A stretch of DNA of 64,000 bases from Eledone cirrhosa (lineage: Eukaryota), in the NCBI GenBank assembly GCA_964016885.1, contig OZ024764.1, forward strand, positions 4,278,001 through 4,342,000, given 5' to 3'. A program made the translations under genes and the position numbers. Shown here one piece after another: positions 1 through 58,727 of the stretch. The notes below the pieces were generated by a model. That model was given only the letters and a program-made list of their open reading frames with translations, was not told where the DNA came from and ran no database searches. Numbering within the stretch: the stretch's first letter is position 1; each line of letters starts with the position of its first letter.

Positions 1-2452
1 AGATAGAAAAGTACCAGTAATACACTGGGGTAATGGCTTATATAGAGAGAAGGCCCAACCACTCAGGCCATCTTTGCCACATTCACCCACCTTTTATAAC
101 ATTTGCTGGGCTACAGATAAACAGATAGATAGAAAAGTACCAGTAATACACTGGGGTAATGGCTTATATAGAGAGAAGGCCCAACCACTCAGGCCATCTT
201 TGCCACATTCACCCACCTTTTATAACATTTGCTGGGCTACAGATAAACAGATAGATAGAAAAGTACCAGTAATACACTGGGGTAATTGGCTTATATAGAG
301 AGAAGGCCCAACCACTCAGGCCATCTTTGCCACATTCACCCACCTTTTATAACATTTGCTGGGCTACAGATAAACAGATAGATAGAAAAGTACCAGTAAT
401 ACACTGGGGTAATGGCTTATATAGAGAGAAGGCCCAACCACTCAGGCCATCTTTGCCACATTCACCCACCTTTTATAACATTTGCTGGGCTACAGATAAA
501 CAGATAGATAGAAAAGTACCAGTAATACACTGGGGTAATGGCTTATATAGAGAGAAGGCCCAACCACTCAGGCCATCTTTGCCACATTCACCCACCTTTT
601 ATAACATTTGCTGGGCTACAGATAAACAGATAGATAGAAAAGTACCAGTAATACACTGGGGTAATGGCTTATATAGAGAGAAGGCCCAACCACTCAGGCC
701 ATCTTTGCCACATTCACCCACCTTTTATAACATTTGCTGGGCTACAGATAAACAGATAGATAGAAAAGTACCAGTAATACACTGGGGTAATGGCTTATAT
801 AGAGAGAAGGCCCAACCACTCAGGCCATCTTTGCCACATTCACCCACCTTTTATAACATTTGCTGGGCTACAGATAAATAGATAGATAGAAAAGTACCAG
901 TAATACACTGGGGTAATGGCTTATATAGAGAGAAGGCCCAACCACTTAGGCCATCTTTGCCACATTCACCCACCTTTTATAACATTTGCTGGGCTACAAA
1001 CAAACAGATAGATAGAAAAGTACCAGTAATACACTGGGGTAATGGCTTATATAGAGAGAAGGCCCAACCACTCAGGCCATCTTTGCCACATTCACCCACC
1101 TTTTATAACATTTGCTGGGCTACAGATAAACAGATAGATAGAAAAGTACCAGTAATACACTGGGGTAATGGCTTATATAGAGAGAAGGCCCAACCACTCA
1201 GGCCATCTTTGCCACATTCACCCACCTTTTATAACATTTGCTGGGCTACAGATAAATAGATAGATAGAAAAGTACCAGTAATACACTGGGGTAATGGCTG
1301 GCCTTGTGCCAAAAAGTAGAAACAGTTATTTCTGTCAACCCTCATCTCCAGGAGCGCCAAGAGTGAGAACTCCCTTCCTCTCTTCCTCTTTTTCCTCAAC
1401 CTACAGGCTTATATAGAGAGAAGGCCCAACCACTCAGGCCATCTTTGCCACATTCACCCACCTTTTATAACATTTGCTGGGCTACAGATAAACAGATAGA
1501 TAGAAAAGTACCAGTAATACACTGGGGTAATGGCTTATATAGAGAGAAGGCCCAACCACTCAGGCCATCTTTGCCACATTCACCCTCCTTTTATAACATT
1601 TGCTGGGCTACAGATAAACAGATAGATAGAAAAGTACCAGTAATACACTGGGGTAATGGCTTATATAGAGAGAAGGCCCAACCACTCAGGCCATCTTTGC
1701 CACATTCACCCACCTTTTATAACATTTGCTGGGCTACAGATAAACAGATAGATAGAAAAGTACCAGTAATACACTGAGGTAATGGCTTATATAGAGAGAA
1801 GGCCCAACCACTCAGGCCATCTTTGCCACATTCACCCACCTTTTATAACATTTGCTGGGCTACAGATAAACAGATAGATAGAAAAGTACCAGTAATACAC
1901 TGGGGTAATGGCTTATATAGAGAGAAGGCCCAACCACTCAGGCCATCTTTGCCACATTCACCCACCTTTTATAACATTTGCTGGGCTACAGATAAACAGA
2001 TAGATAGAAAAGTACCAGTAATACACTGGGGTAGTGGCTTATATAGAGAGAAGGCCCAACCACTCAGGCCATCTTTGCCACATTCACCCACCTTTTATAA
2101 CATTTGCTGGGCTACAGATAAACAGATAGATAGAAAAGTACCAGTAATACACTGGGGTAATGGCTTATATAGAGAGAAGGCCCAACCACTCAGGCCATCT
2201 TTGCCACATTCACCCACCTTTTATAACATTTGCTGGGCTACAGATAAACAGAAAGATAGAAAAGTACCAGTAATACACTGGGGTAATGGCTTATATAGAG
2301 AGAAGGCCCAACCACTCAGGCCATCTTTGCCACATTCACCCACCTTTTATAACATTTGCTGGGCTACAGATAAACAGATAGATAGAAAAGTACCAGTAAT
2401 ACACTGGGGTAATGGCTGGCCTTGTGCCAAAAGTAGAAACAGTTATTTCTGT
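1..2452. repeat. 126-bp tandem satellite (~18 units in two blocks, 1-1335 and 1336-2452); chimera of antisense Tx1 ORF2 3' end, GATA microsatellite and Meta-SINE 3' tail
   Basis: Unit GGCTTATATAGAGAGAAGGCCC...TACACTGGGGTAAT recurs every 126 bp. First ~75 bp align to 30045-30125 (Tx1 ORF2 C-terminus). The last part matches the SINE tail at ~44435-44490. Confidence 0.95.
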
Positions 2453-28159: not shown

Positions 28160-28495
28160 GAGCTTCAATGTATCCATGCTCAGGGAAGCAAGGTGTTCAG
28201 AGTATGGTAGATGCCTGATGGAGGGTATTCGCTTGGTTGCACGTCTCTAGTTTCCAGGAGGTCAATGTTCTGAGCAAGATAGAGGTTCCAGACTGGTGAT
28301 GCAAATTCTAAGTGTGGCCGCACCATAGCTATATACAGCCTTAAATAGATAGCTGGAGAGTGGCTGACAAAGGTCTTGCTGAGTGATGCTAAGACACCCT
28401 CGGCCTTCTTGACAATTTTAGAGATGTGCTTTGTCCAACCTAAATCGTTGCTGACAGTAATGCCCAGGTCACGTTCACAAAAGGACTTCTTGATA
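28160..28495 (-). mobile_element. CR1-group LINE RT C-terminal fragment
   Basis: ERDLGITVSNDLGWTKHISKIVKKAEGVL...LYIAMVRPHLEFASPVWN. Confidence 0.85.
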
Positions 28496-28734
28496 TTAGA
28501 ATTAAAATAATTTGAAAGAAAGGGTTTATAAAGAATATGGTCAAAGAGTACATAATTTGTCATCAAAGGAGGGGAAAGGGCTTGATAATGAGGGTTAACC
28601 CTTTAATGTTCAAACCGGCCAAAACCGGCTAGAATTCTCTACCTCTTTCTATTGAAACTGGCTGTAACTGATCGCTCAAACTGATGTTAAGGTATTGTTC
28701 TCAAAAAAAATACTTTCAAAATCTCAAATGATTC

Positions 28735-29802
28735 GATATTATGTGAGGTAAAGGCTTTACTGTGAAAATACAATAGTATATATAGAGTAATGTAAATGTT
28801 ATGTGAGATATTATGTGAGGTAAAGGCTTTACTGTGAAAATACAATAGTATATATAGAGTAATGTAAATGTTATGTGAGATATTATGTGAGGTAAAGCAT
28901 TTACCGTGAAAATATAATAGTATATAGAGAGTAATGTAAATGTTATGTGAGATATTATGTGAGGTAAAGCCTTTACTGTGACAATACAATAGTATATATA
29001 GAGTAATGTAGATGTTATGTGAGATATTATGTGAGGTAAAGTCTTTACTGTGAAAATACAATAGTATATATATAGAGTAATGTAAATGTTATGTGAGGTA
29101 TTATGTGAGGTAAAGACTTTACTGTGACAATACAATAGTATATATAGAGTAATGTAAATGTTATGTGAGATATTATGTGAGGTAAAGTCTTTACTGTGAA
29201 AATACAATAGTATATATATAGAGTAATGTAAATGTTATGTGAGGTATTATGTGAGGTAAAGACTTTACTGTGACAATACAATAGTATATATAGAGTAATG
29301 TAAATGTTATGTGAGATATTATGTGAGGTAAAGTCTTTACTGTGAAAATACAATAGTATATATATAGAGTAATGTAAATGTTATGTGAGATATTATGTGA
29401 GGTAAAGCCTTTACTGTGAAAATACGATAGTATATATAGAGTAATGTAAATGTTATGTGAGATATTATGTGAGGTAAAGCCTTTACTGTGAAAATACAAT
29501 AGTATATATAGAGTAATGTAAATGTTAAGTGAGATATTATGTGAGGTAAAGCCTTTACTGTGAAAATACAATAGTATATATAGAGTAATGTAAATGTTAT
29601 GTGAGATATTATGTGAGGTAAAGCCTTTACTGTGAAAATACGATAGTATATATAGAGTAATGTAAATGTTATGTGAGATATTATGTGAGGTAAAGCCTTT
29701 ACTGTGAAAATACAATAGTATATATAGAGTAATGTAAATGTTATGTGAGATATTATGTGAGGTAAAGCCTTTACTGTGACAATACAATAGTATATATAGA
29801 GT
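28735..29802. repeat. 72-bp satellite, left of Tx1
   Basis: Unit TGTGAGGTAAAGCCTTTACTGTGAAAATACAATAGTATATATAGAGTAATGTAAATGTTATGTGAGATATTA. Confidence 0.95.
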
Positions 29803-30039
29803 GGTTTCTTTATTTGCCACTAGGGCACAAAAGGTAGGGACAGATACAAGGGGGGAAGTTTACATATAATTAACGAGTACAAAAATATAACAATGAAATA
29901 ACAACAACAAACGAAGTCCTCAATAGGGAGGGGGCATTAACATGGGTCGCACACACCCCGGAAAAAATGTGTAACCCTTCTCCTCAGGAGCACAAAGAGT
30001 AGGTGCTTCCCTCGTCTCCTCTTTTTCCTCTTCTTTTAC

Positions 30040-33000
30040 CTACAGGCTGATATAGAGAGAAGACCCATTCACTCTGGCCATTCTCCCTACTTTCACCCAC
30101 CTTTCATAAAACTTGCTGGGGTAGAGCACCTCTCTCTCCATTCTGATCCTTCTTTTAAAATGGTATTTGAAAAAGGGGACCAGTTGTTGGCCGGAGAGAA
30201 AGGTGTCTGACCTCAGCCCTTTCAGCCTCGTCCACCATACAACTTCTTTAGCCATGGCTACCACACAGAGAAAAACCGCCTCTCCTTCGTTTTTGAAAGG
30301 GGGAGGCGGTTTGATCGTGACAATGGACTCGGTGGTCAACCGGATTGGTCCCACCCTCGACAGTAGTCGTTCCACATAGCCCCACAGGTCAGCAATGCCT
30401 GGGCAGTGTACGAATGCGTGCGCAACGGTTTCGTCATCATGCACGCATCTCGGACAGATCTTATTCAAAGGATCTCTACCCAGGCTCCCATGCCTGTGGA
30501 GCTTGTCTCGAACGGGTAGAGCCCCTCGGTAGCACTGCCAAGCCAGGGACTTTTGGAAGTTGTCCATCGGTCCAGGGCCAAACGTCCTACCAAACAGACT
30601 GGCCAGTTCATCTTCCTCCATGCCTAGAGCTTCTCCGAGAGCATCGTCGCACCTGCTGCGTACCAACCCTCTATAGAATGTCGACGTGGAGTCTCCACTG
30701 ATTGCCGGGTCCGCTTTCCAGAGGACCGTGAGCGCCTGGGCACATTCAATGTGCCAGTCGCCCACTTTTCTCGGTCTTTGCTTGACCCATGATTGCAGCT
30801 CGGTGAGCGAGACGAGTCTGGGAAAGGCTCGCCTCACAAACGGGGCCCACACCGGTTGACCGGTGAGGAATACCTGGAGGTGCCGTAGCCTTAATGCGTG
30901 TTTACGCATCTGTAGCCACGGCATCCCCAGCCCTCCTTTCGAAGGGTGTTGACAGCAGATGGATCTCCTCACCAAAGGGGTCCGCTTGTTCCAAAGAAAT
31001 TGGAACAGCGCGCACTCCATTTTGGCGAGTCTTTTCACTGGGCAAGGCACGACGGTCAAGCGGTAGTAGATGACGGATGCTATATAAGTATTCGCCACCT
31101 CCGCTCGACCTTTCAGGGATAGTTTGCACTGGGCCCACTTCTGGGTGAGTGCAAACACCCTGGCCGTTACCTCGTTCCAGTTTTTCTCCACCTGGAGGTC
31201 TGGTCCGAACCAGACCCCAAGCAGCTTCACCGGGCCCTCCGTCCAGCGTCCGACGACGTCGTTGGAGGGCATCGGTTTGCCTCTCCATGTTCCGAGTTGC
31301 AAACCGACGGACTTGTCCCGGTTCAGCTTGGCTCCTGTAAACCTTTCATATTCCTCCAGTAAGGTGCCGATCTCACCGATTTGCGAGGTTTTCGACACCA
31401 TTACTGTCACGTCATCGGCGTAGGCCGACGCCGCTTTCTGCAATCCCGGTTCCAAAGGGATGCCCTGCAACCGCTCCAACTTCCGCAGTAGTGGCTCAAG
31501 AGCCAGCACATACAGTAGGGAGGAGAGAGGGCATCCCTGTCGGATGGATCGCATGATTTGGAACGGCTCCGAGAGGTGGCCGTTCACCTTGGCCCTTGAG
31601 CAGACGTTGCTGCTGTGCATCGCAGCAATCCAACCCCTGAAAACGGGTCCGAAGCCTGCCGCCGCGAGCACCGCATCCAGGTAACGATGGTCAACCCTAT
31701 CGAAAGCTTTAGATTGATCCAAGTTGATCAGGGCCCCACCAAAGCCGGGTTCATTCCCTACCCTCTCTATGATGTATCGCATAAGGTGGAGATTGTCGTG
31801 AATGGACCTGGACGGGATTGCGCATGTCTGCGCTTCTCCCACCAGGTTTCCAACGACAAGCGCCAACCTCTTCGCTAACACCTTGGCCAAAATCTTTAAC
31901 TCTGTATTTAGCAGAGTTATGGGCCTAAAGTTACTTATGTCATCCCCCTTGTTCTCATCCTTCCTCACCAGCGTAACTACGCTCTTGGTCACAGAACTGG
32001 GAATTCTCCCGTTCTGCTGCCAGTTGCAGTAGACCGCTTCGAGGATATCGGAGAACAAGTCCGGCATCGCTACATATAGCTCGTATGGTAGACCATCGAG
32101 ACCCGGGGATTTGCGTTTGCCGCATTGGCTCAGCGCCGCCCCTATCTCAGCAGCTGAAATCGTCCTTTCGCAGGACTTCGCCTCCGCGTCCGAGAAGCGC
32201 GGCAGACCGTCGAGGTATGGATTGAAATCCATAGTCTCACCCGGCGCGCCGCCCCTCTCGAACAGTCGTGCAAAGTGCCGCTGAAAGGCCGCACACATCT
32301 GCCCAGGTTCAAGGATCACACGCCCATCCTGGTCCTTCAAAGACCGAATCGTGGACTTGTTCCCACTTTTTGCCTCTGTCACTCGGGCCCAGCTCACAGC
32401 TTTGGCTCCCTCATTACCCAGAGCACGTATTTTACTCCTGACAACGCAGCCTTCATGCTTCACCTCAAAGAACTGGTCTAAGGCCATTCTTGATGCCAGC
32501 ACGCCGGCTACATTGCCACTCCTAATCGCCTCTTCTACTCTATCTACTAATTCCCTTTCCGTCTTGTTCCTATCCCTTGCTAATTCCTGACTAAAACCTA
32601 TCGATTCTATTCTAATTGCTCTCTTAAGAGAGCTCCACCACCTGTTGTTGACAATTGCCCCTGTCAAACTCTGCTTAACTAACGTGCTAATCCGTTTACT
32701 GTAAGCTTTGCTTCTCGGTAAGGACAAGTTCAGCTTCCAGTAACCGGGTCCCTGTCTATGGGTTCTATCAAGGTTGGCTATGCAGGTCACTAACTTGTGA
32801 TCCGAATAGTCAACCATGAACATTTTTGGACAGCTAAATGTGTCCCTATCGTTCTCTCTAACTAGGACCCTATCTAGGTACGACCTAGATGTTCCACTGC
32901 GATTGGTCCACGTCCATAGTGGTACAGTCGGAAAATCTAGTCGATATCTATCGGCCAGGTCAAATCGGCCGATTAACCTTTTGAGGCTTTTACACCCCCC

Positions 33001-33477
33001 TCTATTGGCACATGCCCCTACATAGTCCCAACGTGCATCCAGGATACCATTCCAGTCCCCCACTAAAAGCAAGGAGCGGGACGTTCCCAGAAAAGTTTCC
33101 AGACGTTGGAAGTATTCCGGCCGCGCTGCCCAAAAAGGGGCGTACACAGCTATTAGTCTAAGGGCTCCACTTTCACTACTGCCGACGTCTAAAACCACCA
33201 GTCGACCCTCCGGGTCCAGGTGCACCTTCTGTATGGCGAGGCCCAGGTGTTTTCGCAGCAGAACGACAACTCCACCCCCACCCCCCGGTTGACAGAGAGA
33301 TGCGAAGATCTCAAAGTCGTCGAAGAGGGGCGCCAGTTGGTGCTCGCTGCTGATCCTGGACTCGCAAATAGCCATTACATCCATTCTATGCGACCTGAGA
33401 TCGTTTAAAAGTTTGCCTTGTTTCCAAGACAGTCCCAGGCCACGTACATTCAGACACCCAACTCTTATATCAGCCAT
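30040..33477 (-). CDS. Tx1 ORF2: APE endonuclease, reverse transcriptase and C-terminal Cys/His zinc motif (1145 aa, intact)
   Basis: EN motifs CLNVRGL, GDWN, DRVL, SDH; RT motifs SPGLDGLP, FRPITLLN, DQSKAFDRVDH, RQGCPLS, YADD; CPRC-x8-H-x4-C. Confidence 0.97.
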   Translation of the reverse strand: MADIRVGCLNVRGLGLSWKQGKLLNDLRSHRMDVMAICESRISSEHQLAPLFDDFEIFASLCQPGGGGGVVVLLRKHLGLAIQKVHLDPEGRLVVLDVGSSESGALRLIAVYAPFWAARPEYFQRLETFLGTSRSLLLVGDWNGILDARWDYVGACANRGGCKSLKRLIGRFDLADRYRLDFPTVPLWTWTNRSGTSRSYLDRVLVRENDRDTFSCPKMFMVDYSDHKLVTCIANLDRTHRQGPGYWKLNLSLPRSKAYSKRISTLVKQSLTGAIVNNRWWSSLKRAIRIESIGFSQELARDRNKTERELVDRVEEAIRSGNVAGVLASRMALDQFFEVKHEGCVVRSKIRALGNEGAKAVSWARVTEAKSGNKSTIRSLKDQDGRVILEPGQMCAAFQRHFARLFERGGAPGETMDFNPYLDGLPRFSDAEAKSCERTISAAEIGAALSQCGKRKSPGLDGLPYELYVAMPDLFSDILEAVYCNWQQNGRIPSSVTKSVVTLVRKDENKGDDISNFRPITLLNTELKILAKVLAKRLALVVGNLVGEAQTCAIPSRSIHDNLHLMRYIIERVGNEPGFGGALINLDQSKAFDRVDHRYLDAVLAAAGFGPVFRGWIAAMHSSNVCSRAKVNGHLSEPFQIMRSIRQGCPLSSLLYVLALEPLLRKLERLQGIPLEPGLQKAASAYADDVTVMVSKTSQIGEIGTLLEEYERFTGAKLNRDKSVGLQLGTWRGKPMPSNDVVGRWTEGPVKLLGVWFGPDLQVEKNWNEVTARVFALTQKWAQCKLSLKGRAEVANTYIASVIYYRLTVVPCPVKRLAKMECALFQFLWNKRTPLVRRSICCQHPSKGGLGMPWLQMRKHALRLRHLQVFLTGQPVWAPFVRRAFPRLVSLTELQSWVKQRPRKVGDWHIECAQALTVLWKADPAISGDSTSTFYRGLVRSRCDDALGEALGMEEDELASLFGRTFGPGPMDNFQKSLAWQCYRGALPVRDKLHRHGSLGRDPLNKICPRCVHDDETVAHAFVHCPGIADLWGYVERLLSRVGPIRLTTESIVTIKPPPPFKNEGEAVFLCVVAMAKEVVWWTRLKGLRSDTFLSGQQLVPFFKYHFKRRIRMEREVLYPSKFYERWVKVGRMARVNGSSLYISL

Positions 33478-33498
33478 GTTGGTTAAAAGAGGAAGGAC

Positions 33499-35235
33499 CT
33501 ACCTGTTCGGCTCCTGAGGAGCAGGTTGCACAATATCCATGGGCGTATTGGAGGGGTTGTTTGGTGGGGTGTTGTTCTGTGGTGGAGTGGGGGTGTTTGG
33601 TGAGGTGTGGGTGGGGAAACGTTTCAAGAGGACGCGGTTATAGGGTCGAGTACATGTTTTCCCCACGTCCTCAGGAAAGTTCTCTCTTAGTTTTGCATAG
33701 GTGTCCATTGGGAGTCTTATCATTTTTAAATGCGGTTTGTTGGCCGCGCTTGCAAAGAATTGCCCTTCAGTTTCCACCAAAGGGTCTTTGTGTATTGTTT
33801 TTACTAGTTCTTTGTTATTTGTGTTAATGTATGTATACTGTTTTATTTGTGTTGTGTTTGTTTGTTGTTCTTGTGTGTGCTTACGTTTTGTTGTATGTGT
33901 TATGTTTTGGGGTGGGGCGGATTTTGTTTGTTCTGTTTGTTTTGTTTTTGTTGGTGGTTGTGTGTTTGTTTCGTTTATGTTCGAGTGGTGCTTTCTTTTT
34001 TTCCTTTTTACAGGTTGGAAGGGTTCCCCCTCTTCGTCACTAGGTGCCGTTTCCGCTGGGTCCTCGTCCGTGCTGTCGGGTAGTGGTGTATTTTGGGGTT
34101 TTGTTGTATTTGTGTGTGTTTTGGGAGTTGTTTTGGGTGGGGCCGTGTCTTGTGTTATTTTTCCCTGTTGTTTTTGTTGTTGTTGTGGTGGTGGTGGTGG
34201 AGGTGGTGGTGGTGGTGGCGGTGGTGGTGTGTGGGGTGTAGGCAAAAGAGCCTTTTTTTTTGTCAATTGAGGACAAGCAGCCCTTAGATGACCCCTGCTT
34301 GAACAGTAGTAACATATGGGCCTCCTACCCTCGGCTGAAATATATATAAATGTTTCTCCATCGAGGGACACCCTCTGTGGTATTCTAGCTATTCGTTCTG
34401 GTCTCATTTGGACCAGAACCTCCACGCTCAAACCGCCGAAAACGTCTGTGGTGACTTCTCCTACTGAGAGGATTCCGTCCTCGTCTTCTAAAAATCCTGT
34501 TAGTACCCAGGAAATGCATGCATTTGGCCGGATTCCGGAGACCCTTATCTTCTGCGTTCTTTTCCCTAAATATGTGGGGAAAAATGTATGTAGCTTGGAA
34601 ACAATTGGTGCCACAGAGTATTTCCTGGCCGTCAATTGATCCTTCATTAGGACCGTTATATTCCCATAGAGTGGCCCTATTTGTATGAACGATATATCAC
34701 TCCACACATTTTTTAGGACCAGCTCAATCTCTTTTTGGGATAATTGAGTTGGTTTCCTTGTTATGTTGGAAATTGTTCTGAAAGATATCGTTCTTAGCGT
34801 CGTGTCTCTTTTGATTTCTTGTGGGGAGGTGATTGTGAAGTCTCCTCCTTCTTTGAAAGTTACATACTGTTTCGCTTCCTTCATCTTTTCTCTCAGAGTT
34901 GTAATGTCCAGTTGCTTGCAGGTTTGTGTTTTCCGGACCGCCTGTGCAAAGGAGGTACCAGTAGTGGGTTCGCTTTGTTTGGTGTTATCGTTATTTTTTC
35001 CTTGGTTGGTGTTGTGACTATTGCTGTTATTGTCGTTGTTGTTTTTGTCTGCGTTTATGTGACTTTCTGGGTTTTCACCCATTTTTACAAATTTTTCTTT
35101 TAATTCCGTGTTCCATGTTTCTTTTGCAGAAGTCAGGAGGGAAGACTTAGAGCCTTGTGCTTCTAGCTTCTCTGTATCACCTTTCTTAGGGGGCGTGGCT
35201 TTCACGTTAGGATGAGATGTGAAAATTCCGTCCAT
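33499..35235 (-). CDS. Tx1 ORF1: gag-like nucleic-acid-binding protein with one CCHC zinc knuckle (578 aa from first ATG)
   Basis: CYYCSSRGHLRAAC (CX2CX4HX4C); poly-Pro/Gln linker; basic KRKKRK; first ATG at 35235; lies directly upstream of ORF2. Confidence 0.9.
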   Translation of the reverse strand: MDGIFTSHPNVKATPPKKGDTEKLEAQGSKSSLLTSAKETWNTELKEKFVKMGENPESHINADKNNNDNNSNSHNTNQGKNNDNTKQSEPTTGTSFAQAVRKTQTCKQLDITTLREKMKEAKQYVTFKEGGDFTITSPQEIKRDTTLRTISFRTISNITRKPTQLSQKEIELVLKNVWSDISFIQIGPLYGNITVLMKDQLTARKYSVAPIVSKLHTFFPTYLGKRTQKIRVSGIRPNACISWVLTGFLEDEDGILSVGEVTTDVFGGLSVEVLVQMRPERIARIPQRVSLDGETFIYISAEGRRPICYYCSSRGHLRAACPQLTKKKALLPTPHTPPPPPPPPPPPPPPQQQQKQQGKITQDTAPPKTTPKTHTNTTKPQNTPLPDSTDEDPAETAPSDEEGEPFQPVKRKKRKHHSNINETNTQPPTKTKQTEQTKSAPPQNITHTTKRKHTQEQQTNTTQIKQYTYINTNNKELVKTIHKDPLVETEGQFFASAANKPHLKMIRLPMDTYAKLRENFPEDVGKTCTRPYNRVLLKRFPTHTSPNTPTPPQNNTPPNNPSNTPMDIVQPAPQEPNR

Positions 35236-35446
35236 TTCTATTAGTTTGCCGTAATAAATTTTTAACTGGAAAATTCGCCCCAAAAAGGGGCGAAAATAAA
35301 TAAACTCAAAGTTTGACGACCAAGGCAAGGGGTTAACGTATATTACAGTATAAAAAAATTAATCAAAACTCACTTTTTGAGTAAGTAAATCCGACTCGGT
35401 AGCCGAGCTTGTTCACACACGTCAACACACGTCTCTCGTATACGAG

Positions 35447-35865
35447 ATGTTATGTGAGATATTATGTGAGGTAAAGACTTTACAGTGAAAATACAATAGT
35501 ATATATAGAGTAATGTAAATGTTATGTGAGATATTATGTGAGGTAAAGCCTTTACTGTGAAAATATAATAGTATATATAGAGTAATGTAAATGTTATGTG
35601 AGATATTATGTGAGGTAAAGCCTTTACTGTGATAATACAATAGTATATATAGAGTAATGTAAATGTTATGTGAGATATTATGTGAGGTAAAGCATTTACT
35701 GTGAAAATACAATAGTATATGTAGAGTAATGTAAATGTTATGTGAGGTATTATGTGAGGTAAAACCTTTACTGTGACAATACAATAGTATATATAGAGTA
35801 ATGTAAATGTTATGTGAGGTAAAGCCTTTACTGTGAAAATACAATAGTATATATAGAGTAATGTG
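35447..35865. repeat. 72-bp satellite, right of Tx1
   Basis: Same unit resumes at ATGTTATGTGAGAT. Confidence 0.95.
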
Positions 35866-35914
35866 AATGCTAAAGGGTTAACAGAAGTATAAGTCTTTGG
35901 ATCACTACTGCTTT

Positions 35915-36920
35915 TGGTGGCTCTCTCAGACATGGTCTCTGTAGTACATACAACATCCCTCACTAGCTATGCTGATGACACAAAGGTAACACTGCCCTGT
36001 TACAAGATATGGATGTCATATACAAATGGGCTGAGGACAACAACATGCAGCTTAATGCTGGAAAATTTCAAACCCTACAATACCAACCTGCAAACACAAA
36101 TACAATACAACACAGCTACACCGGACCAGGAAGGATCGAAATTCCCGTGTCACAATCGATAGGAGACCTGGGAATAGACATGAGCGACGATGCATCTTTT
36201 TCTTCCCACATCATGTGGGTGGCGACAATGTGCAGACGACTTGCTGGCTGGATCTTGAGGACTTTCCGGACAAGAGACTGAGACACCATGTGGACACTAT
36301 GGAGGACATTTGTCCTAAGCCGCCTGGACTATTGCTCCCAGTTGTGGTCACCCCATAGTGTCAAACTAACCACGGAGCTTGAGGCAATCCAACAAAGCTA
36401 CACCAAGAGGATTGCGATGATAAAGGAGATAAGCTACTGGGAGAGGTTAAAAGAACTGAAACTCTCCTCCTTGGAACTAAGACGGGAGAGATACGCAGTT
36501 ATCTACATATAGACGATCCTGGAGGGACTAGCACCAAACTTTGGCATTGGGAGCTGGACCAACCCCCGAACAGGACGTCACTGTGTGGTGCCAAAGGTCC
36601 TGTCTTTCACATCTAGAGTAAGGAGCAGGTATTGCAATAGCCTGGGGTTCAAGGGCCCTCAACTCTTTACCAAGCTGCCAAGGGATCTGAGAGATCCACA
36701 TGGTTTGGACGTGGATGTTTTCAAGAAACATCTCGACACCCTGCTATCCAGGATCCCAGATGAGACCACAGCACGGTACGAAGGTAACCTAAGGGCAGCA
36801 ACAACAACAAACTCCCTCTTACACCAATGGCCAGCCAACAAAGGCTGGAGATAGAATGTGTAGCAACAAGGGCGGTGCCCCAGCATGGCCTCAGCTGAAT
36901 GGCTAGAACAGGTAAAAGAG
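35915..36920 (+). mobile_element. 5'-truncated degenerate CR1-group LINE with 3' UTR
   Basis: SYADDTK...MQLNAGKFQ...DLGIDMSDD...SRLDYCSQLWSP...YWERLKELKL..LELRRER; stops and frameshifts. Confidence 0.88.
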
Positions 36921-36942
36921 TATATATATATATATATATATA

Positions 36943-37465
36943 TCATCATCATCATCATTTTACAGCCGCTGTTCCCTGCTTCCAAGGGTGGGACGGGAAC
37001 TGATTCTGGCTTGATTTCTACAGTTGGATGCCCTTCCTAACACCAACCTCATTTACAGTGAGTGCTGGGTGCTTTTTTGCTGTGGCACCTCCACGACCAC
37101 TTTGCAGTGGAATGATAGGGACTGGGGTCCCTATCATCTCATTTCTACAGCTGAGTAAACTGGAGCAATATGAAATAAAGAGTTCAATTCTCAGACCGAG
37201 TGATGTGTTGTTTTCTTGAACAAGACACTTTATTTCACATTGTTCCAGTTTACTCAGCTGTAGAAATGAGATGATAGGGACAGGGGTCCATATCATTCCA
37301 CTGCAAAGTGGTCGTGGAGGTACCACGGCAAAAAAGCACCCAGCACTCACTGTAAATGAGGTTGGTGTTAGGAAGGGCATCCAGCTGTAGAAATCAAGCC
37401 AGAATCAGTTCCCATCCCACCCTTGCAAGCAGGGAAAAGTGGACGTAAAATGATGATAATGATGA
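36943..37465. mobile_element. Head-to-head inverted pair of 5'-truncated CORE-SINE copies (36943-37179 minus; 37180-37465 plus)
   Basis: Both arms match the 14300 SINE; the junction lies at the B box of the plus copy. Confidence 0.85.
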
Positions 37466-37530
37466 TATATATACATAAAAATATGTGTATATATATATAT
37501 ATATCATCATATGTGTATATATATATATAT

Positions 37531-37752
37531 ATCATCATCATCATCATCATCATCATTGTTTAACGTTGATCTTCCACGCTAGCATGGGTTTGGACGGGAG
37601 TTTTCCCACTTGAGGCAAGATTGGTTGTCTTGCTCGTATAGGACTGTCTGGCGGGTTTTCTACAGCTGGATGCCCTTCCTAACACCAACCACGTTTACAG
37701 TGTGGGGCTGGGAGGTTTTTACCGTGTTAACTACACGACCACATTACAGCAT
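37531..37752 (-). mobile_element. RTE 3' UTR stub with (GAT)n tail
   Basis: Homologous to 22118-22335. Confidence 0.85.
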
Positions 37753-37754
37753 GG

Positions 37755-37824
37755 ATATATATATATACATACATACAAATACATATGTGTATATATATAT
37801 ATATATATACATACATACAAATAC

Positions 37825-37865
<41 letters not shown>

Positions 37866-38108
37866 CATACAAATACATATGTGTATATATATATATATAC
37901 ATACATACAAATACATATGTGTATATATATATATATATACATACATACAAATACATATGTGTATATATATATATACATACATACAAATACATATGTGTAT
38001 ATATATATATATACATACAAATACATGTGTATATATATATATATATACATACATACAAATACATGTGTGTGTATATATATATATATATATATACATACAT
38101 ACAAATAC

Positions 38109-38139
<31 letters not shown>

Positions 38140-38194
38140 CATACATACAAATACATATGTGTATATATAAATATATATACATACATACAAATAC

Positions 38195-38245
<51 letters not shown>

Positions 38246-38910
38246 CAAATACATGTGTATATATATATATATACATACATACAAATACATATGTGTATAT
38301 ATATATATATATATATACATACAATACATATGTGTATATATATATATATATATACATACAATACATATGTCTATATATATATATATATATATATATACAT
38401 ACATACAAATACATGTGTATATATATATATACATACATACATACAAATACATATGTGTATATATATATATACATACATACAAATACATATGTGTATATAT
38501 ATATATATACATACAAATATATATGTGTATATATATATATATATACATACAAATACATATGTGTATATATATATATATATATATACATACATACAAATAC
38601 ATATGTGTATATATATATATATATATATACATACATACATACAAATACATATGTGTATATATATATATATACATACAAATACATATGTGTATATATATAT
38701 ATATACATACAAATACATATGTGTATATATATATATATACAAATACATATGTGTATATATATATATATACATACAAATACATATGTGTATATATATATAT
38801 ATACATACAAATACATATGTGTATATATATATATATACAAATACATATGTGTATATATATATATATACACACAAATACATATGTGTATATATATATATAT
38901 ACACACAATA
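37755..38910. repeat. Minisatellite ACATACAAATACATATGTG(TA)n
   Basis: Direct reading. Confidence 0.92.
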
Positions 38911-39109
38911 TATGACAGCAAGAGAGAGATCTGCTTCTCTGTCGCAATGTTAAACACGCTTTGCTATGAAAAACCAATAAAAACCAATTATCAATTGATT
39001 TGGTGTTAGTAAAACAGTATTTAATTAGTTAATGTGAGGTCAAATCCTTATTGATAATTAATATAGTATTAAACAGGTCTCTTGACACAGTAGAATAATA
39101 AAGACATGA

Positions 39110-42100
39110 AATGGGCTGATTTTCAGATCAAACAAAGGAAACAATGTTTCCATTAGTCCTTTCAATTATTCATACTATCTGTTGGTCACAGTCTCTGACA
39201 AGAAAAGAGCTGATTGTTTGATCAGACCAAGGAAAAAATGTTTCAATTGGTCTTTCCATTACTGATACTATCTGTCAGTCACAACTCCTGACAGAAGAAA
39301 GGAGCTGATCATCAGATCAAACCAAGGAAACAATGTTTCCATTGGTCTTTCCATTACTGATACTATCTGTCAGTCACAACTCCTGACAGAAGAAAGGAGC
39401 TGATCATCAGATCAAACCAAGGAAACAATGTTTCCATTGGTCTTTCCATTACTGATACTATCTGTTGGTCACAACTCCTGGCAGAAGAAAGGAGCTGATC
39501 ATCAGATCAAACCAAGGAAACAATGTTTCCATTGGTCTTTCCATTACTGATACTATCTGTTGGTCACAACTCCTGGCAGAAGAAAGGAGCTGATCATCAG
39601 ATCAAACCAAGGAAACAATGTTTCCATTGGTCTTTCCATTACTGAAACTATCTGTCAGTCACAATTCCTGGCAGAAGAAAGGAGCTGATCATCAGATCAG
39701 ACTAAGGTAACAATGTCTCCATTGGTATTTCCATTACTGATACTATCTGTCAGTCACAACTCCTGGCAGAAGAAAGGAGCTGATCATCAGATCAGACCAA
39801 GGAAACAATATCTCCATTGGTCTTTCCATTACTGATACTATCTGTCTGTCACAACTCCTGACAGAAGAAAGGAGCTGATCATCAGATCAGACCAAGGAAA
39901 CAATATCTCCATTGGTCTTTCCATTACTGATACTATCTGTCTGTCACAACTCCTGACAGAAGAAAGGAGCTGATCATCAGATCAGACCAAGGAAACAATA
40001 TCTCCATTGGTCTTTCCATTACTGATACTATCTGTCTTTCAATTACTGATACTATCTGTTGGTCACAATTCCTGACAGAAGAAAGGAGCTGATCATCAGA
40101 TCAAACCAAGGAAACAATGTTTCCATTGGTCTTTCCATTACTGATACTATCTGTCAGTCACAACTCCTGGCAGAAGAAAGGAGCTGATCATCAGATCAAA
40201 CCAAGGAAACAATGTTTCCATTGGTCTTTCCATTACTGATACTATCTGTCAGTCACAACTCCTGACAGAAGAAAGGAGCTGATCATCAGATCAAACCAAG
40301 GAAACAATGTTTCCATTGGTCTTTCCATTACTGATACTATCTGTCAGTCACAACTCCTGACAGAAGAAAGGAGCTGATCATCAGATCAAACCAAGGAAAC
40401 AATGTTTCCATTGGTCTTTCCATTACTGATACTATCTGTTGGTCACAACTCCTGGCAGAAGAAAGGAGCTGATCATCAGATCAAACCAAGGAAACAATGT
40501 TTCCATTGGTCTTTCCATTACTGATACTATCTGTTGGTCACAACTCCTGGCAGAAGAAAGGAGCTGATCATCAGATCAAACCAAGGAAACAATGTTTCCA
40601 TTGGTCTTTCCATTACTGAAACTATCTGTCAGTCACAATTCCTGGCAGAAGAAAGGAGCTGATCATCAGATCAGACTAAGGTAACAATGTCTCCATTGGT
40701 ATTTCCATTACTGATACTATCTGTCAGTCACAACTCCTGGCAGAAGAAAGGAGCTGATCATCAGATCAGACCAAGGAAACAATGTATACATTGGTCTTTC
40801 CATTACTGATACTATCTGTCAGTCACAACTCCTGACAGAAGAAAGGAGCTGATCATCAGATCAGACCAAGGAAACAATATCTCCATTGGTCTTTCCATTA
40901 CTGATACTATCTGTCTGTCACAACTCCTGACAGAAGAAAGGAGCTGATCATCAGATCAGACCAAGGAAACAATATCTCCATTGGTCTTTCCATTACTGAT
41001 ACTATCTGTCTGTCACAACTCCTGACAGAAGAAAGGAGCTGATCATCAGATCAGACCAAGGAAACAATATCTCCATTGGTCTTTCCATTACTGATACTAT
41101 CTGTCTTTCAATTACTGATACTATCTGTTGGTCACAATTCCTGACAGAAGAAAGGAGCTGATCATCAGATCAAACCAAGGAAACAATGTTTCCATTGGTC
41201 TTTCCATTACTGATACTATCTGTCAGTCACAACTCCTGGCAGAAGAAAGGAGCTGATCATCAGATCAAACCAAGGAAACAATGTTTCCATTGGTCTTTCC
41301 ATTACTGATACTATCTGTCACTCACAACTCCTGGCAGAAGAAAGGAGCTGATCATCAGATCAGACCAAGGAAACAATATCTCCATTGGTCTTTCCATTAC
41401 TGATACTATCTGTCAGTCACAACTCCTGGCAGAAGAAAGGAGCTGATCATCAGATCAAACCAAGGAAACAATGTTTCCATTGGTCTTTCCATTACTGATA
41501 CTATCTGTCAGTCACAACTCCTGGCAGAAGAAAGGAGCTGATCATCAGATCAGACCAAGGAAACAATATCTCCATTGGTCTTTCCATTACTGATACTATC
41601 TGTCAGTCACAACTCCTGGCAGAAGAAAGGAGCTGATCATCAGATCAGACCAAGGAAACAATATCTCCATTGGTATTTCCATTACTGATACTATCTGTCA
41701 GTCACAACTCCTGGCAGAAGAAAGGAGCTGATCATCAGATCAGACCAAGGAAACAATATCTCCATTGGTCTTTCCATTACTGATACTATCTGTCAGTCAC
41801 AACTCCTGGCAGAAGAAAGGAGCTGATCATCAGATCAGACCAAGGAAACAATGTTTCCATTGGTCTTTCCATTACTGATACTATCTGTCAGTCACAACTC
41901 CTGGCAGAAGAAAGGAGCTGATCATCAGATCAGACCAAGGAAACAATGTTTCTATTGGTCTTTCCATTACTGATACTATCTGTCAGTCACAACTCCTGAC
42001 AGAAGAAAGGAGCTGATCATCAGATCAGACCAAGAAAACAATGTCTCCATTGGTCTTTCCATTACTGATACTATCTGTCAGTCACAACTCCTGGCAGAAG

Positions 42101-42318
42101 AAAGGAGCTGATCATCAGATCAGACCAAGGAAACAATGTCTCCATTGGTCTTTCCATTACTGATACTATTGTCAGTCACAACTCCTGACAGAAGAAAGGA
42201 GCTGATCATCAGATCAGACCAAGGAAACAATGTCTCCATTGGTCTTTCCATTACTGATACTATCTGTCAGTCACAACTCCTGGCAGAAGAAAGGAGCTGA
42301 TCATCAGATCAGACCAAG
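39110..42318. repeat. 95-bp tandem satellite (~33 units) with internal hairpins and a ~1-kb higher-order duplication
   Basis: Unit ACCAAGGAAACAATGTTTCCATTGGTCTTTCC...GGAGCTGATCATCAGATCAA; rare variants recur at 39641/40615 and 40032/41101. Confidence 0.95.
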
Positions 42319-42319
42319 T

Positions 42320-43057
42320 GGATTAGGAGGTGCCTACTGACTGTATGTTTGAGTCTGTGTTCAAGGGAAGTGGGGTCTTTTGTATTACTGCAGAACGCTA
42401 AAGATCTCGATCCTGTCTCATTGTGTTAGAGAGGTACAAGTGTGCAAGGTCAGCTTTTATCACCTTGTCCTAGGACTGTTCTGGGTCTTCCTACTTCGTA
42501 GCTTCCATCAATTTTGATTGCCCTGCACTCTTTTATACAGCTGCTGTTTTTCATACACAGTACATGACCATACCAATGCAATCTCCTCTCAAGTAAACAG
42601 CATCTGTTCCCTCTTATTCCTAATTTCTCAATTTGTTTATGTTTTGCTGTTCACGTATATTACTATTACACATCCATCGGAGCATGCATGCTTCATTTCT
42701 TTCCAATCTGTGCAGGTCCTCTGCACGTAATGCCCATGTCTCACTGCCATGTAGCATTGCTGTTCGTATACAGGCATCATACAATCTGCCTTTCATATTT
42801 AGAGAGAACCCTTTAGCGGCTAATAGTGGTATAAGCTCTCTGAACTTTTTCCATCCCGTTCTAACTCTGGCTACTGTACTTTCTGAGCATCCTCCATTGC
42901 TGATTTTGTGCCCCAATTAACGGACAGTTTCCATTATTTCTATAGATCCATCTGGGCAGTAGAAGGAGCTAGTATCCTGTGGGCACTTGCTACTTATTGC
43001 ACCTGAGCATCAGCCACATATAAAACCTATGTTCTTTGATAACCTGCCTGTGATCCC
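42320..43057 (-). mobile_element. Degenerate RTE LINE C-terminal fragment
   Basis: [21 protein letters not shown]...LHGSETW. Confidence 0.88.
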
Positions 43058-43424
43058 TTACATCCAATGGATGTGCAATGTCAATGTACGTGAATGACCA
43101 AGCTTGGATGAGTTGAGTGAGAAACTGTGTATAAGAGGGATAAGCTGTAGTGTGCGGGAGAGAAGACTGAGATGGTATGGACATGTGATGTGCATGGAGG
43201 ATGACCACTGGGTAAAGAAGTGCCAAGAAATCCCAGTAGAAGGAAGACACAGTAGAGGAAGACCACGAAAAACATGGGCGGAGGTGGTGAGAACAGACCT
43301 CAGATCATTGAAGCTCACGGTGGAGATGACGAGGGACTGTGCCGAGTGGAGAGATGCTGTGCTGAATAGGACCCGTCCCACCCTTGCACGCAGGGAAAAG
43401 CAGACGTAAAATGATGATGATGAT
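43058..43424 (+). mobile_element. 5'-truncated RTE LINE (short-3'UTR subfamily; likely SINE partner)
   Basis: [13 protein letters not shown]...GRPRKTW...RTRPTLARREKQT*, then (GAT)n. Confidence 0.9.
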
Positions 43425-43646
43425 ATATATGTAAAAAATGAAAGTCTAATGACTGCCATTACACTTTATCTACACAACAACAATAATAATCTACCTTCAA
43501 CCACAAAAGATTTAATAGATTATGTCCCTTTATTGAAATTTCGTACAAATTAGAAAAATATAATTTTCACTAATAACACATATTTATGTGTGTGTTTGTA
43601 TGAGTATATTTATATATATATATGTATGTATATATGTGTGTAGTAT

Positions 43647-43746
<100 letters not shown>

Positions 43747-43836
43747 TATATATATATATATATATATAATATTTATATATATATATATATATATAATATT
43801 TATATATATATATAATATTTATATATATATATATAA

Positions 43837-43918
<82 letters not shown>

Positions 43919-44300
43919 TATATATATAATATTTATATATATATAATATTTATATATATATATTATATATATATATATATATATTATATATATTATATAT
44001 ATATATATAATATTTATATATATCTATTATATATATATATATATATATTATATATATTATATATATATATATAATATTTATATATATCTATTATATATAT
44101 ATATATATATATTATATATATTATATATATATATATAATATTTATATATATCTATTATATATATATATATATATATTATATATATTATATATATATATAT
44201 AATATTTATATATATCTATTATATATATATATATATATATTATATATATTATATATATATATATAATATTTATATATATCTATTATATATATATATTATG

Positions 44301-44492
44301 AGGGCGATGGATTGGCAGTATCGGTAGAGGGTCGGACGCCATGCTTTGACGCATAGAGTTACGGTCTTTGCCATTCTGAGTTCAAATCCCGCCGAGGTTA
44401 ACTTTGCCTTTCATCCTTACGGGGTCGATAAAATAAAGTACCAGTAATGTACTGGGTAATTGCTGGCCTTGTGCCAAAAAGTAGAAACAATT
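44301..44492 (+). mobile_element. Meta-domain-type SINE
   Basis: tRNA-like head (TGGCAGTATCGG; GAGTTCAAATCC); GCCTTTCATCCTTACGGGGTCGATAAA core; tail GGCCTTGTGCCAAAAAGTAGAAAC. Confidence 0.85.
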
Positions 44493-44901
44493 ATATATAT
44501 ATATTATATATATATATATATTATATATATTATATATATATATATATAATATTTATATATATCTATTATATATATATATATATATAATATTTATATATAT
44601 CTATTATATATATTATATATATATATATAATATTTATATATATATATATAATATTTATATATATATATTATATATATATAATATATATATTATATATATA
44701 TAATATATATATATGTATGTATGTATGTATGAATACATATATATGTGTGTGCAAAGATCAATGACGCATGTAAATAATATATATATATATATATATATAT
44801 ATGTCAGTGAACAGAAAAGTCTTGAGTTGAATCGGTAGATCATCCAGTGACCCGAACAACTGGATGTTGGGATATCTGGAGTGGATCTCCGGATGGCCGT
44901 A

Positions 44902-45042
44902 TCAGCGATGTTTCTTCCGTTCTAGTTTGGCAACGGTCTGGAGGTGGACCTCATCTGGCCCATCGGCCAGTCGCAGTATCCTGGCCCAGGAGTACATGGA
45001 AGCTAGTGGGAGATCCGAGTGTAGTCCTGCCCCGCCATGGAT
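44902..45042 (-). CDS. ACAD10: ACAD10-like acyl-CoA dehydrogenase, final coding exon
   Basis: tattacAG|[46 protein letters not shown]; ADGPDEVH is the ACAD10/11 signature. Confidence 0.93.
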
Positions 45043-45106
45043 CTGTAATAGATAGATAGGTAGATATATAGGTAGGTAGGTAGGTAGGTAGGTTGGTAGA
45101 TAGATA

Positions 45107-45377
45107 GATTTCTTTATTAGCCACAAGGGCGCAACAAGAAAAGGGGACAATACAAAGACATGCCGGGGATTTTACAACAATCGAAATCCCCAATAGGTTG
45201 GTAGATAGATATATTTCTTTATTAGCCACAGGGGCACAAAAGAAGGGGACAAATACAAAGGGGGAAGTTTACATACAATAAAAACGTGTAAAATGGTTGG
45301 TAGATAGATAGGTAGATATATAGGTAGGTAGGTAGGTAGATAGATAGATATGTTTCTTTTTATTTGCCACCAGGGCA
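45107..45377 (-). mobile_element. Three stacked 5'-truncated Tx1 3' ends (~45107-45193, ~45212-45294, ~45351-45377) in a GATA/GGTA microsatellite
   Basis: Each begins (plus strand) TTTCTTT(TT)ATT(A/T)GCCAC-NN-GGGC, like 29805-29826; TSD (TA)GGTTGGTAGATAGATA at 45089-45106, 45194-45211 and 45295-45310. Confidence 0.85.
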
Positions 45378-45648
45378 TATACATTATATACTTTATATAC
45401 TTTATATACTTTATATACATTATATACTTTATATACATTATATACTTTATATACATTATATAGATTATATACTTTATATACATTATATACATTATATACT
45501 TTATATACTTTATATACATTATATACTTTATATACATTATATACTTTATATACATTATATACATTATATACTTTATATACTTTATATACATTATATACAT
45601 TATATACATTATATACTTTATATACTTTATATACTTTATATACATTAT
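45378..45648. repeat. 9-bp minisatellite TATAC(A/T)TTA
   Basis: Direct reading. Confidence 0.92.
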
Positions 45649-45905
45649 AAAACTCGTTTTTAAAAGAATTGTCCCTCACATTTTTTCAATAATGTCACTT
45701 TGACGAATCAAAGAAGAAAAAAAGTAAAACAGACCCTAAAATATATTTTCTCTGCTATTTCTAATTCCACCTTTTCTCTATAACCCCTGTTTTGTATAGA
45801 ACCTTACTTCCTTTTCAAATATATATATATATATATATACACACACTCACTAATATATATATATATATATATATACACTCACTTATATATATATATATAT
45901 ATATA

Positions 45906-46075
45906 AAGGAACGAGTAGGACCCCGACGGCTGACCTCAAGCCGTTTCGACGGCTAATTCAGGAGTCCTGAATTAGCCGTCGGGGTCCTACTTGTTCCTAT
46001 GACCCACTCTACTACCCTAAGTATTGAGTACTTTGGTGCGTTATGGTCCACCTGGTTCCTTACCACATTTCTTTT
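45906..46075. mobile_element. PLE-like remnant with nested palindrome; reverse-complement relative at ~57155-57248
   Basis: GGAACGAGTAGGACCCCGACGGCT ... AGCCGTCGGGGTCCTACTTGTTCC; half hammerhead GAAACGGCTTGAGGTC on the minus strand. Confidence 0.5.
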
Positions 46076-46076
46076 G

Positions 46077-46110
<34 letters not shown>

Positions 46111-46405
46111 AGATAAATCTACCAAGAGTTTACGGTAGTGTCCAATCCGTATGAAGAACTCAATGTAATCCGGATATCATGGAAAGAAGAGATGCATTCA
46201 AAAATCACTTTCGGTGAAAGATAAACGGAATACAGAGTCAAGATAAAGTATTAAAAAAATAATGAATAAAACAATGAAACAGTTCCCCATACCAAACAAA
46301 AAAAGTTCATTATTTAACGATCGCTTCCAGGACACATATGTGTTAGAACCGACATGCATATTCAACAGATCTATGTACAAAATTATACAAACTATCAAAT
46401 CTAAT

Positions 46406-46458
<53 letters not shown>

Positions 46459-46599
46459 TATTTATTTATATATATATATATATATATTTATATATAGTTA
46501 TATATATATAGGTAACTGCATGTTGGGAGAAAGGTTGTAATGGAGGTGTTTGTGTGTGTCTGTATATATATATATATATATACACACACTCACTAATAT

Positions 46600-57949: not shown

Positions 57950-58727
57950 TTAACCCTTTACCATTTACATTACTCTATATATACTATTGTATTGTCACAG
58001 TAAAGGCTTTACCTCACATATCTCCCATAACATTTACATTACTCTATATATACTATTGTATTTTCACAGTAAAGGCTTTACCTCACATAATATCTCACAT
58101 ACCATTTACATTACTCTATATATACTATTGTATTTTCACAGTAAAGGCTTTATCTCACATAATATCTCAAATAACATTTACATTACTCTATATATACTAT
58201 TATATTTTCATGGTAAAGGCTTTACCTCACATAATACCTCACATAACATTTACATTACTCTATATATACTATTGTATTTTCACAGTAAAGGCTTTACCTC
58301 ACATAATATCTCACATAACATTTACATTACTCTATATATACTATTGTATTGTCACAGTAAAGGCTTTATCTCACATAATATCTCACATAACATTTACATT
58401 ACTCTATATATACTATTATATTTTCATGGTAAAGGCTTTACCTCACATAATACCTCACATAACATTTACATTACTCTATATATACTATTGTATTTTCACA
58501 GTAAAGGCTTTACCTCACATAATATCTCACATAACATTTACATTACTCTATATATACTATTGTATTTTCACAGTCAAGGCTTTACCTCACATAATACCTC
58601 ACATACCATTTACATTACTCTATATATACTATTGTATTTTCACAGTAAAGCCTTTACCTTGCATAATATTGAATATATGAGATTTTGATGTTATTTATTT
58701 TAAGAACAATACATTAACATAAGTATA
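57950..58727 (-). mobile_element. Truncated piggyBac-type MITE with 72-bp satellite, opposite orientation
   Basis: TTAACCCTTTACCATTTAC end, ~10 satellite units, then part of the unique arm. Confidence 0.8.

Follow-up and report, generated by a model that had tools for sequence, protein, structure and literature searches.

The stretch of Eledone cirrhosa DNA analysed here, hereafter the window, is 64,000 nucleotides long and contains a compound GATA/GGTA microsatellite (45049..45350, plus strand) that carries three short LINE 3' ends, or stubs, all on the minus strand. Comparison among families identified stub 1 (45107..45195) as a family C 3' end, 96% alike to that family and with an internal deletion of ~36 nt, and stub 2 (45212..45294) as a family A 3' end, identical over 81/81 positions to copies at at least six other sites. 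Stub 3 (45351..45378) comprises 26-28 nt of family E, adjoins a 9-bp tandem array and has no clear target-site duplication (at most ATA). The families are ~73-90% alike at the DNA level. An earlier, sequence-only reading of the window had noticed three distinct stubs in one orientation, which was borne out; as they belong to three separate families, tandem duplication of a single insertion is ruled out as their source. The 16-bp site GGTTGGTAGATAGATA stands before, between and after stubs 1 and 2 (45091..45106, 45196..45211 and 45295..45310, all plus strand), with the putative nick 3' of its final base. Since this duplication is locus-specific and also lies between the two stubs, the same nick was used twice; stub 1, likely the older, probably arrived first, and in this inferred order stub 2 entered the right-hand copy of the site. 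Duplications of 16-18 bp had been proposed here: 16 bp stand, and the additional TA is ambiguous, being also family C sequence at the 5' break of stub 1. Such stacking was common, several fetched copies adjoining the 3' end of another family. A nested inverted repeat of ~90 bp at 45908-46000, between AT microsatellites, is likely a small hairpin element. One read-derived contig matched stub 2 over 77 nt, too short a match to be of use, and among contigs from four runs compared with 44810-45420 none spanned the microsatellite. No Rfam matches were found within 28500-46500.

At the start of the window, a 126-bp satellite (1-2417) holds a family B fragment (1336..1487, minus strand) that corresponds to nt 165-316 from the family 3' end at 94%. 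The observation that this Tx1 piece adjoins GATA repeats was correct, but the contact is a family B 5' junction on a GATA tract, a single event amplified with the satellite. The 126-bp unit is a chimera of another repeat's end, the family B fragment and the GATA tract, and an undeleted form is kept in a longer satellite unit at ~1270-1390.

The window also contains a full-length element (29803..35446, minus strand) of a MITE-targeting sister family, S. Its ORF2 (30040..33477, minus strand; 1145 aa) encodes an APE endonuclease, a reverse transcriptase and a zf-RVT domain (PF03372 at residues 22-227, PF00078 at 512-756, and PF13966), and its best match among solved structures is human L1 ORF2p (E 4e-52). 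With an N-terminal APE endonuclease followed by a reverse transcriptase, the element is an APE-type non-LTR retrotransposon of the L1 group; 5' truncation, precise 3' ends and target-site duplications are all present. ORF1 (33499..35235, minus strand; 578 aa) has a CCHC knuckle (C-x2-C-x4-H-x4-C) and no Pfam match, and its look-alikes were zf-CCHC and ZCCHC3-like clusters, the best of them mostly from Mollusca. The clade name Tx1, which we presume from architecture, the homologues found bearing no Tx1 names, would fit this two-ORF build. An AATAAA (29809..29814, minus strand) lies 6 nt from the element's 3' end, and the junction is without poly(A). Beyond the 5' end, positions 35447..35471 (minus strand) form a target-like leader, likely carried by S itself, that represents the first ~25 nt of a 72-bp unit. 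The host is a MITE (28595..35881, no strand assigned) with TTAA at both ends, CCC...GGG inverted ends and a 72-bp tandem array interrupted by S. It seems in turn to interrupt an older coding-like repeat fragment (28160-28594 and 35882-36200). Further MITE copies with expanded 72-bp arrays and no S lie at 17681-19133 and 57950-58669. An (ATC)n-ended element adjoins or interrupts the 72-bp array repeatedly (~19133; loci L121, L218, L221, L232), four times after the same TAGTAT, and is possibly a second repeat drawn to the MITE.

We then asked how the 3' ends of these families are placed across the genome. The 16-base 3' terminus occurred exactly 16,792 times, and its reversed control seven times. 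ATAGA stood at -9..-5 of 12,194 of the 16,792 ends against ~33 expected (an estimate from both strands of 310 kb of background), which excludes chance; ATAGATA-NN preceded 11,594 (~5 expected) and (GATA)3-NN 6,312 (~1 expected, given 359,473 sites in about 6e9 strand positions). Site-specific retrotransposition of a Tx1 family at (GATA)n had been proposed from the window. The data support it, and for several families, whose separate insertions can stack at one site and whose flanks are enriched for ATAGA/(GATA)n far above background. Family A had 5,197 ends with GATA-NN, of the same order as its 5,257 family ends (the two patterns differ by 6 nt). For individual sites we took the first 100 listed, all within the first 27 Mb of one contig, and seven more; the 100 split into 78 GATA-family, 18 family S and 4 (AAT)-type sites. 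The flank logo of the GATA families is AGATA, and not a (TC)n or (TTC)n target: exact AGATA preceded 65 of their 78 sites and was absent in 13. Family E, with 879 exact ends, had AGATA before 22 of its first 25. Fewer than two GATA units lay within 20 nt at 21/78 GATA-family sites, and the target is better described as a motif in which repeats are rich than as a long array or a strict microsatellite. Families have been called target-specific when one flank type is found in >20% of copies, a criterion given in the available text of PMC4494074; here one type accounted for 65/78 sites in the GATA families, 18/18 in S and 15/15 in H2, and the division of families between targets is strict.

The 3' junction is fixed, reading AATAAAGAAA plus two family-typical bases without poly(A). 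Target-site duplications stop two bases before TTTCTTT, from which we infer that these two bases are the element's end and that the nick falls at AGATA^G. Every Tx1 3' junction of the window had been described as ATAGA-NNNN-TTTCTTT, and all four (4/4) do read so; the last two of the unspecified bases belong to the element, and the first two, TA or GT, belong to the target and split two target classes.

The second class is that of family S. It numbers ~330 copies, and its 325-334 ends stand at AGAGT-NN, the insertion site following TATATAGAGT within the 72-bp repeat of the TTAA-flanked MITE. AGATA preceded none of the 18 sampled S sites; just two ends of the S 3' pattern lie after AGATA, and the sequence downstream assigns both to family F. 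Conversely, among genome-wide ends, none of those from the AGCCAC-type families follows TATATAGAGT. The two claims built on a common target were thus not supported: neither that ATAGA is a single shared target, S ends following AGAGT and those of the other families AGATA, nor that the product of 30040-33477 is the GATA-targeting endonuclease-RT, since its element belongs to S, with 334 ends after AGAGT. That one family encoded by 30040-33477 targets ATAGA/(GATA)n is scarcely credible, for although the ATAGA register is shared, AGATA is found at 0/18 S sites against 65/78 of the other families and the stubs match C, A and E, not S, which refutes it at the level of sequence; nor would family A need to be mobilised in trans by the S protein, as A has intact copies. 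The GATA-side enzyme is encoded outside the window, family A having many such copies.

We also considered that the GATA tract might be the element's own 3' tail, as in microsatellite-tailed LINEs, given that GATA always lies 3' and in one orientation and that many duplications are pure GATA. The target was duplicated over ~7-27 bp near the 5' break in 40/78 GATA-family sites, and 27 of these 40 duplications of at least 7 bp were pure GATA and uninformative (shuffles give 32). At 13/78 sites, however, the duplications held locus-specific letters, against 2.8 (maximum 8) in 200 shuffles, with G directly after the nick in 11/13; such letters (GGTT and GGTA in the window) occur on both sides of the element, with AGATA in both copies, so that the GATA motif predates the insertion and is not a tail. 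Moreover, GATA also stands 5' of copies that are 5'-truncated, and S has the same 3' end without GATA, leaving a tail origin highly improbable.

The host of S is an element of roughly 220 bp with TTAA ends and CCCTTTAGCATTT inverted repeats, present in at least 9,249 copies, going by its exact right ends, and with one 72-bp unit in 21 of 30 sampled. A TTAA duplication and CCC...GGG inverted ends, with both ends present, were found at 14/30 loci, features by which the host would be classed as a non-autonomous piggyBac-like MITE. This setting raises the question of whether S was ever retargeted: a founder lodged in one MITE could have been carried along by composite DNA transposition or by duplication of the array, and the ~90% of full-length copies, their one junction, and tandem S-array clusters (C1 4.22-4.26 Mb), some sharing flank variants, would be expected of such a passenger. 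The MITE arms around S are, however, only 87% alike on average (range 78-92%, 9 arms) with damaged inverted ends, close to the 90% among arms of empty MITEs (n = 13), while young S copies are >99% alike; a composite element moving as a unit would not leave host arms less alike than the passenger. Further, among 20 regions chosen for a missing 5' partner, three held truncated S copies at the same insertion site, flanked by 2-9 bp duplications; of the other 17, 15 had full-length copies with variants, one had an inverted copy, and in one the copy, though truncated, was joined to the usual leader. Tandem duplication therefore accounts for some clusters and not for the family, and we regard spread as a passenger as very unlikely, though slightly less so than a tail origin. 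By these comparisons S went into old MITEs one copy at a time. A duplication of 65 bp around S was mostly rejected, only 18/65 left-unit variants recurring on the right. Tandem runs of five or six full-length S with at least one 72-bp unit between them occur at C1:4.22-4.26 Mb, and more of the same kind at C10:40.72-40.75 Mb and 41.38-41.43 Mb. Among the copies listed, those of S are concentrated towards the ends of large contigs and on small ones, whereas intact A copies are spread along large contigs.

Families S and A differ strongly in completeness. S had 302 5' ends, 291 with one junction (23/23 of those inspected), and ~90% of its copies are full length, against ~3% of A (154 exact 5' ends for 5,257 3' ends, a lower bound from one exact pattern; 6/20 fetched A copies had no recognisable 5' end). 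Across 39 S copies, the first 25 nt of the leader held 8 variants and the next 40 nt held 57, and the leader keeps its 72-bp form within arrays of 61-bp units, with one exception; it is likely, on this pattern of variation, that the leader is carried on the RNA. Past the leader, the remainder of that 72-bp unit is of local origin and for the most part differs from the unit across the element, as would fit pairing with the following unit and a net loss of 7 bp. One S copy (L091) lacks the usual leader form, and another (L178) resembles a ~50-bp duplication rather than a 7-bp loss. In family A, the 5' flank starts with GATAGAGAG in 13 of 14 full-length copies with a readable 5' end. At L204 and L211, full-length A copies have two or three GATA units at the site and a longer GATA tract on the 5' side, and the leader may there seed new target. 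At its 5' end S has a perfect 12-bp palindrome (35435-35446), which A lacks there and which may be a snap-back relic dating from the founding insertion.

Both families retain intact enzymes. Many A copies have an intact ORF2, 19 of 20 fetched giving 1,145 aa, and AGATA-TA precedes all 19. The S and A proteins are identical at 991/1145 positions (87%), differ at ~45 endonuclease positions, and share the hairpin NRSGTSR, located between the positions of L1 T192 and S202. These residue positions come from an alignment to L1; a single-sequence AlphaFold model of the endonuclease (pLDDT 39) was left unused. Tryptophan occupies position 116 in 9/11 S rows and 0/24 other rows, glycine being present in 21/24 of the latter and in 19/19 intact A copies. 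Two residues studied in other LINEs align with the neighbouring position 115: L1 N118, a major-groove contact (PMC8565326), and R1Bm Y98, where mutation alters the site of cleavage (PMC1919474), as the available passages of these papers describe. G116W, beside a known base-contact position, would be the likeliest protein change behind the switch, as one candidate among several; P154A is another, A154 being confined to S.

In phylogenetic trees S fell inside the GATA families (SH-aLRT 99 and 97), a second tree agreed, and the AU test was marginal against GATA monophyly (p = 0.04). The tree with these values covered 22 of 51 rows (columns 250-1000), chosen without duplicates and the most broken copies, and many of its rows came from decayed copies. 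There is thus moderate support for S nesting among the GATA families. Relatives that follow (AAT)n in a fixed register (42 and 297 exact ends; C1:17006100 and loci L258-L287), with ATAAT before 15/15 and 8/15 sampled ends, have a different hairpin and are an outgroup to the GATA families, outside which the (AAT)n family falls in the trees. One of them, family H, shares 62% endonuclease identity with S.

Taken together, the stubs very probably represent a GATA-directed LINE radiation, and the full-length element of the window a sister family that likely moved, in the recent past, from GATA to the MITE repeat. GATA-family endonucleases would nick at AGATA^G and the S endonuclease at TATAGAGT^AATG (AGAGT^A). 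From what is known of LINE biology, the nicked GATA strand would prime reverse transcription and early 5' joining would yield stubs, and the duplication would rebuild the site so that later copies could reach the same nick. With AATAAA only 6 nt from the element's end, transcripts may extend into flanking DNA and so be able to pair with the nicked strand. The target-like 5' leader of full-length copies would let the cDNA pair with the target; in S the partner would be the next 72-bp unit, with 7 bp lost on balance, and such pairing would account for both the uniform 5' junctions and the high share of complete copies.

The alternative that survives best concerns what distinguishes A from S. Both endonucleases might nick alike at the shared ATAGA core, with the read-through flank of the RNA picking the target by pairing. 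ATAGA indeed stands at the same register in both targets, the hairpins are identical, both families have target-like 5' leaders, and the AATAAA near the end of an element without poly(A) would permit read-through; in R1Bm and other site-specific LINEs, moreover, ribosomal sequences are described as mattering for RNA-target interaction during first-strand synthesis (PMC6895275, in part). Against an RNA-led choice, the fixed S changes lie in the loop bearing R1Bm Y98, whose mutation alters cleavage (PMC1919474), and cross-insertion between S and A is nil, though nicking alone would allow some. Swaps of the L1 loop also failed to transfer specificity, according to the portions available of PMC1950540 and PMC8565326, so that an unchanged hairpin does not by itself point to RNA. 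We lean towards a protein-led choice as the probable source of the A/S difference; an RNA-led choice seems unlikely but deserves weight, and other causes take the small remainder. As a tentative fuller account, which we think rather less likely to be right than wrong in its details, S may only just have left GATA for the MITE repeat with its hairpin unchanged, by way of one or two loop residues and of RNA ends that are copied from the target and pair with DNA on either side, 5' pairing giving the ~90% of full-length copies, which are also precise.

Microsatellite-directed Tx1 families are known at (TC)n (Kibi), (TTC)n (Koshi) and, in crocodilians, (TTCC)n and (TTTC)n (PMC4494074, PMC3812793, as far as the excerpts go). 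Like these, the GATA families are APE-type LINEs with a microsatellite target in fixed register; going by the target descriptions in those excerpts, they are set apart by AGATA^G / (GATA)n, which is not pyrimidine-only, and, unlike Kibi and Koshi, by what is likely a mollusc host. Insertion into transposons also has parallels, as Xenopus Tx1L inserts in Tx1D, a non-autonomous piggyBac element, and crocodilian Tx1-Mar in Mariner-N4 (partial texts of PMC4494074 and PMC1950540). S resembles the published outline of Tx1L in using one site within a non-autonomous TTAA-ended DNA transposon. Tx1D also carries internal tandem repeats. Unlike Tx1L, S derives from GATA-targeting relatives in the same genome (A, 87% protein identity), and full-length S copies have a leader and an apparent 7-bp loss rather than the fixed duplication given for Tx1L in those texts. 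For R2Bm to insert at full length, its RNA is described as having to carry target sequence from upstream (PMC6895275, same portion), and S likewise ties target-derived 5' sequence to precise full-length insertion; unlike R2Bm, which by that portion has a restriction-like endonuclease and an rDNA target, S is APE-type, and its RNA leader is deduced from DNA. Dong elements insert at (TAA)n (PMC3812793, in the part available). Family H follows the same repeat, as (AAT)n, but unlike Dong as portrayed there is kin to the GATA families. Dong belongs to the R4 clade.

An annotation of Octopus vulgaris lists 13 recently active L1-Tx1 families with 421 insertions (PMC13282606); its passages on L1-Tx1, as available, name no target, and the same families may be catalogued there without one. 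We found no description of a GATA-targeting LINE in the literature searched, outside which lie Repbase, Dfam and the supplements of PMC4494074, and the GATA target is probably previously unreported. As far as checked, systems of this kind are known; new are the target and, above all, two closely related intact enzymes whose targets do not overlap.

The findings bear on the way in which site-specific LINE endonucleases come to change target. Young, intact S and A enzymes that are 87% identical, with identical hairpins and non-overlapping targets, form a matched pair that narrows the test to a few residues and the RNA ends, and a third relative follows (AAT)n. A family that is ~90% full length is relevant to gene insertion, where 5' truncation is the usual loss. 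In this genome, both microsatellite markers and repeat annotation are affected by the insertions next to GATA motifs, of which there are at least 11,600. If the account of S given above is true, the target and the completeness of an APE-type LINE would be resettable via its RNA flanks.
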